Notes under the pieces: generated by a model
Seen by the model: only the letters and a program-made list of their open reading frames with translations
The model's database searches: none
Told to the model about the DNA's origin: nothing
Part shown: positions 58,235 to 60,350 of the stretch, in pieces
How the letters are laid out: the number at the start of each line of letters is the position of its first letter
Position numbering within the stretch: the first letter of the stretch is position 1
Made by a program: the position numbers and the translations under genes
From: Candidatus Methanoperedenaceae archaeon
Lineage (GTDB): Archaea > Halobacteriota > Methanosarcinia > Methanosarcinales > Methanoperedenaceae
Reading direction: 5' to 3'
Assembly (NCBI GenBank): GCA_963753595.1
Contig: CAVWCX010000004.1
Coordinates: 27,929 to 91,928 of the forward strand
Length of the DNA stretch: 64,000 bases

Positions 58235-59251
58235 ATGAAACTCTGTGAATTTGACTATCATCTTCCCAAAGAACTTATCGCCCAGTCTCCAATAGAACCA
58301 AGAGATGCATCTAAATTAATGGTAGTGAGGGAAACGATCGAGCACCGTTTTTTCTCAGATGCCCTTGATTACTTTGAGGCCGGGGATACTCTTGTTCTTA
58401 ATGATTCAAGAGTAATACCTGCAAAACTCATGGGCAAAAAAAGTACCGGCGGTCATGTGGAAGCGCTTGTTGTCTCAAGGAACGACGCTGGTTATGAATG
58501 CATGATCCGGGGGAAGAATATCCACGAAGGTACTAAACTGAATTTCGGCGAGCTTGAAGCAACAGTGCTCCAGATCCTGGAAAGGCCCAATACCAACAGG
58601 TATCTTGTTAATTTCAATTGCAATGGAAATCTTCCTGACATTCTTGAAAAAATAGGAGAAGCGCCGCTGCCTCCGTATATCAAACAAAAACTCGATAATA
58701 AGAACCGTTACCAGACGGTCTATTCAAAAGAAAAAGGCTCAATTGCAGCGCCAACAGCCGGCCTTCATTTCACGAACGAGTTATTGGAGAGAATAAAAGA
58801 AAAAGGCGTCAACATCGCTTATGTCACTCTTCATGTAAGCCTCGGGACTTTTACACCAGTTAAAGCCCAGGATATTGAATATCACATTATGGAACCGGAA
58901 TATATTTCTGTCCGGAAGGAAAATGCAGACATTATCAATGGAACGCCCGGAAAACTCATAGCAGCAGGAACAACAACGGTAAAGGCACTTGAGAGTTCAT
59001 GCATTGATGGGAAAATAGTAGAAAAAGAAGGATTCAGTGAGCTTTTTATTTATCCGGCATATCAATTCAACTCAAAAATTGATGCTATGATCACAAACTT
59101 CCACCTTCCTAAATCCACTCTCTTGATGCTTGTGAGTGCTTTTGCAGGCAGGGAACGGTTGATGGAGGCTTATAATGAAGCCATTTCACATTCATACAGG
59201 TTTTACAGTTTCGGGGATGCAATGCTTGTTTTCAAGGGGAGGGATAAATAA
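58235..59251 (+). CDS. queA: SAM:tRNA ribosyltransferase-isomerase QueA
   Basis: [45 protein letters not shown] and [10 protein letters not shown] motifs. Confidence 0.96.
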
Positions 59252-59252
59252 T

Positions 59253-60350
59253 ATGTACCAGCTGATCCACACAGATAAAAATACAGGAGCAAGAGCAGGA
59301 AAACTCAGGACAAACCATGGGATCATTGAAACTCCTGCATTCATGCCCGTTGCCACAAAAGCGACGGTAAAGACGATCACAACCGATGAGCTTTATGAAA
59401 TGGGAACAGAGGTGCTGATAAGCAATGCTTTTCACCTTTTGCTCGCTCCCGGAATGGAAGTTATCCAGAAAGCTGGCGGTCTCCATAAATTCATGAATTG
59501 GAAGGGGGGTATATTCACAGACAGCGGCGGTTTCCAGATGATACGAAAAGATTTTCCATTCAAGATCAACGATGAGGGAATTATTTATAAGAATTTACGG
59601 GATGGGAAAAAATATTCTTATACTCCTGAAATCTGTCTTACGAATCAGAAGCTGCTTGGAAGCGATGTCGCTATGATACTTGATGATTGCCCTGCTTATG
59701 GGAGTGAGTTCAAAGTTGTGAAAGCTTCAATGGAAAGGACAATAAAGTGGGCGGGGATGGCTAAGAATGTGGACCAAAACCATGGCCAGCTCTTCTTTGC
59801 AATACTTCAGGGAGGGACATTTGCAGAATTGAGGAGAAGATGTGCTGAAGAACTGATCGAGCTTGATTTTGATGGCTATGGGATAGGTGGCTTATCAATT
59901 GGTGAGCCAAAGGAAATCATGAATGACGTTTTAAAGCTTAGCGTGCCGCTTGTTCCTGAAGATAAGGCGCGCTACCTTATGGGTGTGGGTTCACCGATAG
60001 AGATATTAAATGCGATCGAATCTGGAATCGATATTTTTGACAGCGCCTTTCCCACGCGAAATGCAAGGCATCAGACACTTATGACCTCAAAAGGGAGCAT
60101 TGATATTGCTAAGAAAAAATTTTCAACGGATTTTTCGCCGGTGGATGAAAATTGCGGATGCTACACCTGCAGGAATTATACAAGAGCATACCTGCATCAT
60201 CTTTTCAAGGAATCCGAACTGCTGGCTCTTCGGCTTGCTTCCATACATAATCTTCATTTTATACAGTCAATAGTGAAAGGGGCAAGGGAAGCGATATTGG
60301 ATGACGGGTTTTCAGAGTACAGGAAAAATGTAATAGCGGGTTTAATTTGA
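59253..60350 (+). CDS. tgt: Bacterial-type tRNA-guanine(34) transglycosylase
   Basis: [38 protein letters not shown]...PTRNAR and CxCxxC...HN motifs; 365 aa with no PUA extension. Confidence 0.93.

Follow-up and report, generated by a model that had tools for sequence, protein, structure and literature searches.

The analysis concerns two adjacent genes, queA and tgt, in a 64,000-nucleotide stretch of archaeal DNA, hereafter the window, which spans positions 27929-91928 of contig C4 of a metagenome-assembled genome (MAG). The assembly comprises 2.89 Mb in 37 contigs, with an estimated completeness and contamination of 92.3% and 2.95%, respectively, and belongs to Candidatus Methanoperedens, a member of the Methanoperedenaceae and of subgroup 2d of the anaerobic methanotrophic archaea (ANME-2d). 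By textbook accounts, queuosine at tRNA position 34 (Q34) is a feature of Bacteria and Eukarya, and archaeosine at position 15 (G+15) a feature of Archaea. On the forward strand of the window, queA (58235-59251) encodes a predicted tRNA preQ1(34) S-adenosylmethionine (SAM) ribosyltransferase-isomerase of 338 amino acids (aa), and tgt (59253-60350) a predicted bacterial-type tRNA guanosine(34) transglycosylase of 365 aa. Only 1 bp separates the queA stop codon (TAA, 59249-59251) from the tgt start codon (ATG, 59253). The longest open reading frame (ORF) over tgt opens at 59175; we prefer the ATG at 59253 because the 365 aa it yields fit the lengths of full-length Tgt homologues, nearly all of which measure 360-383 aa among the matches listed. 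The pair is preceded by a 56-bp A+T-rich spacer on the same strand (58179-58234, 5' of queA), read by eye as a possible archaeal promoter, in which contigs of relatives assembled from RNA libraries have a 20-nt deletion.

Judged by equivalog cut-offs and near full-length structure alignments, both products are predicted to be bacterial-type Q34 enzymes. QueA scored 415.1 bits against the NCBIfam equivalog NF001140 (cut-off 324), 378.6 bits against TIGR00113 (cut-off 267.45) and 400.4 bits against Pfam PF02547 (profile positions 3-322 of 322), and residues 1-332 were aligned with PDB 1vky (E 1.7e-95). Tgt scored 452 bits against TIGR00430, the 'tRNA guanosine(34) transglycosylase' model (cut-off 306.75), with a profile coverage of positions 1-359 of 368, and 457.4 bits against Pfam PF01702. 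A first-pass annotation of this DNA had allowed for the Tgt grouping with the archaeosine-type enzyme (arcTGT) instead, which is not what we found: the archaeosine-TGT model TIGR00432 gave only 155.9 bits (cut-off 350), and among solved structures the bacterial 2ash (E 4.9e-105) is far closer than the archaeal arcTGT 1iq8 (E 2.5e-26). We take both 2ash and 1vky to be Thermotoga maritima proteins.

The Tgt carries the motifs TDSGGFQ (residues 89-95), LDDCP (143-147), GGLSIGE (212-218), FDSAFPTR (262-269) and CGCYTC (301-306). In an alignment with 2ash and 10fb the corresponding patterns TDSGGFQ, D-x-C, GGL(S/A)(I/V)GE, FD(S/C)xxPTR and the zinc motif CxCxxC are conserved, and the pocket segment GGLSIGE consists of the same residues in 2ash ('igglsige'). 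Residues of the Tgt are presumably catalytic as in the enzyme of Zymomonas mobilis, on which our assignment leans. The protein is a single domain in which the C-terminal arcTGT/PUA domains are absent, as 365 aa leave no space for a PUA extension. The first-pass annotation had described both genes as full-length and 1 bp apart, with DSGGFQ, D-x-C and GLSIGE motifs in a Tgt devoid of the archaeal PUA extension, and our coordinates, profile scores, residue positions and protein length agree with it on each count.

Conservation and origin of the queA-tgt pair

The closest Tgt homologues among the matches listed come from Candidatus Methanoperedens and other Methanoperedenaceae (72-99% identity), followed by sequences labelled 'ANME-2 cluster archaeon' and 'Methanosarcinales archaeon' (59-64%), while QueA is 94% and 87% identical to its counterparts in two Methanoperedenaceae-type MAGs. 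QueA was detected in 49 of the 53 genomes of the family, including 33 of the 34 high-quality ones (at least 90% complete and at most 5% contaminated). Three of the four negative genomes are 72-81% complete, and the fourth is the sole representative of genus g2. Across a sample of 251 genomes of the order, 67 matched QueA, and 64 of these fall into two families; by family, the counts are 48/52 in f1, 16/20 in its sister family f2, 1/1 in f5, 1/6 in f6, 0/27 in f3 and 0/144 in f4. Synteny in relatives, a check proposed with the first-pass annotation, proved consistent, with tgt directly behind a co-oriented queA in 12/12 loci of the family and 9/10 loci of other families (21/22 overall). The contigs bearing the pair include two of 709 kb and 448 kb, as well as a single-contig genome of 1.92 Mb elsewhere in the order. 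Since the flanking genes vary between species, the pair moves as a unit.

Pairwise ratios of non-synonymous to synonymous substitution (dN/dS; Nei-Gojobori, window genes versus relatives, 12 pairs per gene) ranged from 0.043 to 0.112 for queA (10 unsaturated pairs, two saturated) and from 0.024 to 0.072 for tgt (seven unsaturated pairs, five saturated). Both genes are under purifying selection, strong in the case of queA.

The phylogeny of QueA was examined with a FastTree analysis of 164 rows, covering 141 of 150 representatives (nine outside 300-420 aa were excluded), and with a quick IQ-TREE analysis of 67 rows, in which 39 of 80 named loci were hand-picked for taxonomic spread and five near-duplicate f1 rows were dropped. 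The sequences of f1 and f2 form well-supported clades in both trees. In the IQ-TREE analysis all 34 named bacteria lie on one side of a branch with a Shimodaira-Hasegawa-like approximate likelihood ratio test (SH-aLRT) value of 92, a branch not counted among the well-supported ones. On its other side stand the clades of archaea together with one Woesearchaeota sequence and several further representatives; the backbone lacks resolution. The nearest named bacterial QueA sequences, from Bacillota and Chloroflexota, are ~50-53% identical to that of the window, and the Woesearchaeota QueA is 54% identical. Neither trees nor identities single out a donor or a number of transfers. These data fit an old transfer, or a few, after which ANME-2 lineages would have passed the genes on vertically, and as part of our best explanation the pair would be a unit of bacterial origin that ANME-2 genomes now retain stably by vertical inheritance.

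A candidate queuosine pathway and the source of preQ1

A search of the genome for a separate arcTGT and for queC and queD, as the first-pass annotation had proposed, found all three. The arcTGT (TgtA) is a 480-aa protein encoded on contig C3 (637.8 bits against TIGR00432), and QueC and QueD are both present. The tRNAs that a bacterial-type Tgt would modify are also encoded, with tRNA-Asp(GUC), tRNA-Asn(GUU), tRNA-His(GUG) and tRNA-Tyr(GUA) all having a C-U-G-U-N anticodon loop; tRNA-Asp has G15 in addition. The triplet U33-G34-U35 is the identity element of bacterial Tgt. The tRNA-Tyr(GUA) gene (C18:21600-21712, reverse strand) contains a 37-nt intron beside the anticodon, and exchange of its G34 by a bacterial-type Tgt would presumably take place only after splicing.

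The same search extended to the last step of the pathway. QueH (PF02677), a cobalamin-independent epoxyqueuosine reductase, is found in 51 of the 53 family genomes and in all 34 high-quality ones. In relatives queH often lies on the contig that carries queA, in several within ~10 kb of it, and in the present genome it is unlinked to queA-tgt and lies on contig C30, where it occupies two frames. The alternative reductase QueG gave a partial match of 36.9 bits on C26, well below the cut-off of 200, and was rejected as a generic Fe-S segment.

Based on this gene complement, and by analogy with the bacterial enzymes, we consider it probable that both proteins have tRNA G34 as their target, as in bacteria, and form a working, horizontally acquired Q34 pathway beside G+15. 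A homodimeric, zinc-containing Tgt would insert preQ1 in place of G34 in tRNA-Asp, -Asn, -His and -Tyr, QueA would then attach the ribosyl moiety, taken from SAM, to the aminomethyl group and so form epoxyqueuosine (oQ), and the unlinked QueH would reduce oQ to queuosine. The native arcTGT and ArcS would continue to convert G15 of these tRNAs to archaeosine, and both routes would depend on one preQ0 pool. Conversion of preQ0 to preQ1 would be the only step without a gene, and preQ1 would have to be supplied by neighbouring bacteria via an unrecognised transporter or by a reductase unrelated to QueF. The first-pass annotation had suggested that the lineage may make both G+15 and Q34 or oQ34; the genetic potential is present (arcTGT, ArcS, QueC, QueD, Tgt, QueA and QueH), with queH split in this genome and a source of preQ1 missing.

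Several observations weigh against a working pathway, one being that Tgt and QueA have no visible source of substrate, as none of QueF, YhhQ, QueT, ureide permease and HlyIII was found in this genome. QueF (PF14489) had no match in this genome, exceeded the cut-off in only one of the 53 family genomes, and reached E <= 1e-5 in three of the 251 genomes of the order, one of them in f1 and one in f2. The transporters YhhQ and QueT were found in none of the 53 family genomes, this one included, and the ureide permease and HlyIII families had no match in this genome; the major facilitator superfamily (MFS), being too generic, was not searched. Absence from this genome alone is weak evidence at 92.3% completeness, and the family-wide absences are stronger. 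The control genomes gave the expected matches in each QueF and transporter search, QueF being matched in seven of the 14 named genomes (six over the cut-off), all of them bacteria. The expectation of the first-pass annotation that preQ1 would have to come from QueF or salvage thus exposed a real gap, with no QueF, YhhQ or QueT in the genome to fill it.

A further point on the same side is that queH of this genome is split over two overlapping frames (C30:50590-51094; L008:1344-1884, reverse strand) matching profile positions 1-131 with 138 bits and positions 124-175 with 57.2 bits. The frame changes between '...SPYQKHDTLAR' and 'GSGEKIAEQ...', which is not in any long homopolymer, and may be either a real mutation or an assembly error. 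QueH was matched in 50 of the 52 other family genomes, every full-length match being a single open frame. Recognition of archaeal tRNAs by this Tgt is assumed by analogy, and our literature searches gave no report of queuosine measured in any archaeon. As to expression, two bioreactor studies provided three RNA libraries with contigs that span the queA and tgt orthologues of close relatives, and two of these contigs bridge the queA-tgt junction (X19 record 18, 58949-59719; X20 record 23, 58780-59325), a weak hint that the pair is expressed in relatives; stretches without RNA-contig cover carry no information. These contigs represent relatives at ~85-95% identity and not the present strain, and the hint is weak because DNA carry-over is possible in RNA libraries.

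As far as gene content tells, the cells would make preQ0 and hold all tRNA-level queuosine enzymes, yet have no recognisable means of preQ1 synthesis or import. The sole QueF over the cut-off in the family is that of one relative (G012, L065:643-3833, on C66), where it stands in an island with a 174-aa ORF, a phosphoribosyltransferase-like ORF, QueC and a DUF932 protein. This island had no tblastx match to the present genome at E < 1e-20, and it looks like a mobile 7-deazaguanine module of a virus or plasmid and not like a trait of the family. To look for a QueF substitute or transporter, ORFs were clustered from 22 queA loci plus the window and from 15 queH loci, and no candidate for either role emerged from these neighbourhoods. 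Antisense shadow ORFs aside, three neighbours recurred: PolB (six loci and the window, one of these loci in f2), PF01887 (six loci, all in f1) and a protein of 380-457 aa (seven loci). The last of these, a queH neighbour without a Pfam match, was rejected as a transporter, since it has a Thr-rich tail and no more than one hydrophobic segment; its gene in this genome is on C1, apart from queH. The recurrent neighbours carry little weight because related genomes are not independent.

The PF01887 neighbour is a SAM hydroxide adenosyltransferase (PF01887/PF20257) that adjoins queA in six of the 12 family loci (L047, at 337-1134, L039, L040, L048, L049 and L050). QueA also uses SAM, and the neighbourhood may reflect only shared ancestry of gene order.

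We tentatively put forward, as a possibility well short of an expectation, that ANME-2 archaea including Methanoperedens place Q34 with preQ1 obtained by an undescribed route, which would be either a non-QueF reductase acting on their own preQ0 (free or on tRNA) or obligate uptake of preQ1 from bacterial neighbours via a new transporter family. Such a route is open to testing because QueA occurs in 67 of 251 genomes (64 in f1 and f2 together) and QueF in one f1 and one f2 genome.

Alternative explanations

The pair might reflect bacterial contamination of the MAG or a chimera created during assembly, for which the estimated contamination of 2.95% and the occurrence of queA-tgt on both C4 and C25 could be cited. 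The second copy has a simpler origin: C25:32304-42525 matches C4:81707-91928 (window 53779-64000) in reverse complement over 10,222 bp at 99.43% identity, with 58 substitutions and no indels, none of the differences falling in queA and one in tgt. This duplication probably stems from overlapping contig ends or from a strain variant and not from a second locus, and because the two contig ends are reverse complements the assembly counts queA-tgt, purP and polB twice. Archaeal genes border the pair on the same contig, and it recurs in 49/53 family genomes and in a genome from another part of the order that consists of one contig. A chimeric bacterial insert, which the first-pass annotation had considered, is therefore already refuted by conservation and synteny across family and order (adjacent in 21/22 loci). 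Very improbable, in our estimate, is a function elsewhere than at tRNA position 34, for example 7-deazaguanine modification of DNA or action on another RNA. Precedent exists in DpdA, a TGT-like protein described as modifying DNA in bacteria and phages (PMC6884629, PMC5699537), and the mobile-looking QueF-QueC-DUF932 island in one relative would suit such a role. However, the Tgt lies far over the tRNA-G34 equivalog cut-off, and no further DNA-modification genes recur beside the pair in the 22 loci. QueA and QueH are also, to our knowledge, known only from the tRNA pathway.

The two remaining alternatives accept tRNA position 34 as the target. One holds that Tgt inserts preQ0 made for archaeosine, with preQ0 at position 34 and QueA and QueH left without a substrate. 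Bacterial Tgt accepts preQ0, and the presence of QueC and QueD where QueF and the known transporters were not found would agree with this, but purifying selection on QueA is strong (dN/dS 0.04-0.11), and QueA is kept in 49/53 family genomes, as QueH is in 51/53. We consider this explanation improbable, because such retention is hard to explain without a substrate. Somewhat less remote, though still unlikely in our judgement, is a pathway truncated in this strain, in which Tgt and QueA would work and queH would be truly frameshifted; if the frameshift is real, the strain would end at oQ34 and not Q34. The two overlapping QueH frames on C30, the shift point outside any long homopolymer and the single open frame of all other family genomes with a full-length QueH match speak for a mutation, and are set against the fact that a single indel is at issue in an assembly from a metagenome with signs of mixed strains (the 10.2-kb overlap at 99.43% identity), with 50 of the 52 other family genomes matching QueH and the full-length matches in one frame. 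A working Q34 pathway beside archaeosine remains our preferred reading.

Flanking genes and known systems

The first-pass annotation had called the flanks of the pair archaeal, and this assessment stands. The window encodes the archaeosine synthase alpha subunit ArcS (50750-52588, reverse strand; 611 aa with a C-terminal PUA domain; 711.7 bits against NF040592, cut-off 440), TBP (53779-54342, reverse strand), a Kae1-Bud32 fusion (47588-49177), PurP domains (54778-55848, by Pfam scan) and, as read by eye, a family-B DNA polymerase-like ORF (PolB) that runs from 62232 to the end of the window. A Lys/Glu-rich ORF of 285 aa (57321-58178, forward strand) lies directly 5' of queA; neither Pfam nor NCBIfam gave a match to it, conservation (82%) is confined to the closest relative (L043), and an RNA-library contig of a relative spans from this ORF into queA. 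The gap between arcS and tbp holds a 279-aa ORF (52818-53657, forward strand) with a sub-threshold match to MtrC/MtrF-like multihaem cytochrome domains (27.1 bits, cut-off 30). In the part of the window with the lowest GC content (0.31-0.34, positions 33000-36000), a 1,547-bp repeat (35172-36718) is 100% identical to C25:28515-30061 and encodes a DDE transposase (ORF 35185-36522, reverse strand; PF01609, 78.4 bits); it is adjoined by a 334-aa ORF (33560-34564) without a Pfam match. The GC contents of queA (0.419) and tgt (0.431) are host-like, that of the window being 0.405.

The novelty of queuosine genes in archaea implied by the first-pass annotation does not hold, as such genes have already been published. 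Castelle et al. 2021 (PMC8204110) report QueA, a QueH-like protein and Tgt from a set of 34 archaeal genomes that includes 12 DPANN, and the legend of their Figure 4 names 'some Euryarchaeota (Methanosarcinales)'; in these passages the gene-level claim is the same as ours and the focus is on DPANN. Public records already label proteins as 'tRNA guanosine(34) transglycosylase Tgt [Candidatus Methanoperedens sp.]'. The presence of the genes, published in 2021 and annotated, is thus largely known. A full-text literature search returned no paper pairing Methanoperedens with queuosine. Judged by title or abstract, only Castelle et al. 2021 was relevant to queuosine in Methanosarcinales and no paper was relevant for ANME, and part of the matches, judged likewise, included no experimental follow-up on DPANN queuosine and nothing more on archaeal QueH. 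New here are the distribution across family and order, the synteny, the evidence for selection and the consistent gap in QueF and transporters.

That anaerobic methane oxidisers, an environmentally important archaeal clade, keep bacterial genes under purifying selection makes the exception to the textbook division concrete and testable in existing enrichments. The gap in QueF and in the known transporter families searched suggests that a preQ0 reductase or a transporter awaits discovery, or that bacterial partners exchange precursors with these archaea; if uptake is obligate, queuosine would be a micronutrient shared across domains in methane-oxidising consortia.

Among known systems, the closest is the bacterial Tgt-QueA-QueH pathway of Thermotoga maritima and Lactococcus lactis, which comprises the same three families; in our control search QueH was matched only in these two among 14 genomes. 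The resemblance extends to structure, the closest solved relatives being 2ash for Tgt, with an identical GGLSIGE segment, and 1vky for QueA. Unlike the T. maritima type, the archaeal host also encodes arcTGT and ArcS, QueF (matched in T. maritima in the control search) was not found, and queH is both unlinked and split. The archaeosine pathway (TgtA and ArcS), also encoded here, shares the TGT superfamily fold and the preQ0 precursor; in contrast to the 480-aa arcTGT of this genome, the Tgt of the window has 365 aa, scores 155.9 bits on the arcTGT model and has none of its C-terminal domains. A third parallel is offered by bacteria that salvage preQ1, which likewise combine Tgt, QueA and an oQ reductase without QueF, a combination that implies import of preQ1 (Quaiyum et al. 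2024, PMC11130926). Four specific transporter families are named there, YhhQ/QPTR, QueT, ureide permease and HlyIII, the last two of which that study showed to carry preQ0 and preQ1; none of the four was found here (MFS carriers were not searched). Unlike typical salvagers, moreover, this organism would make its own preQ0.

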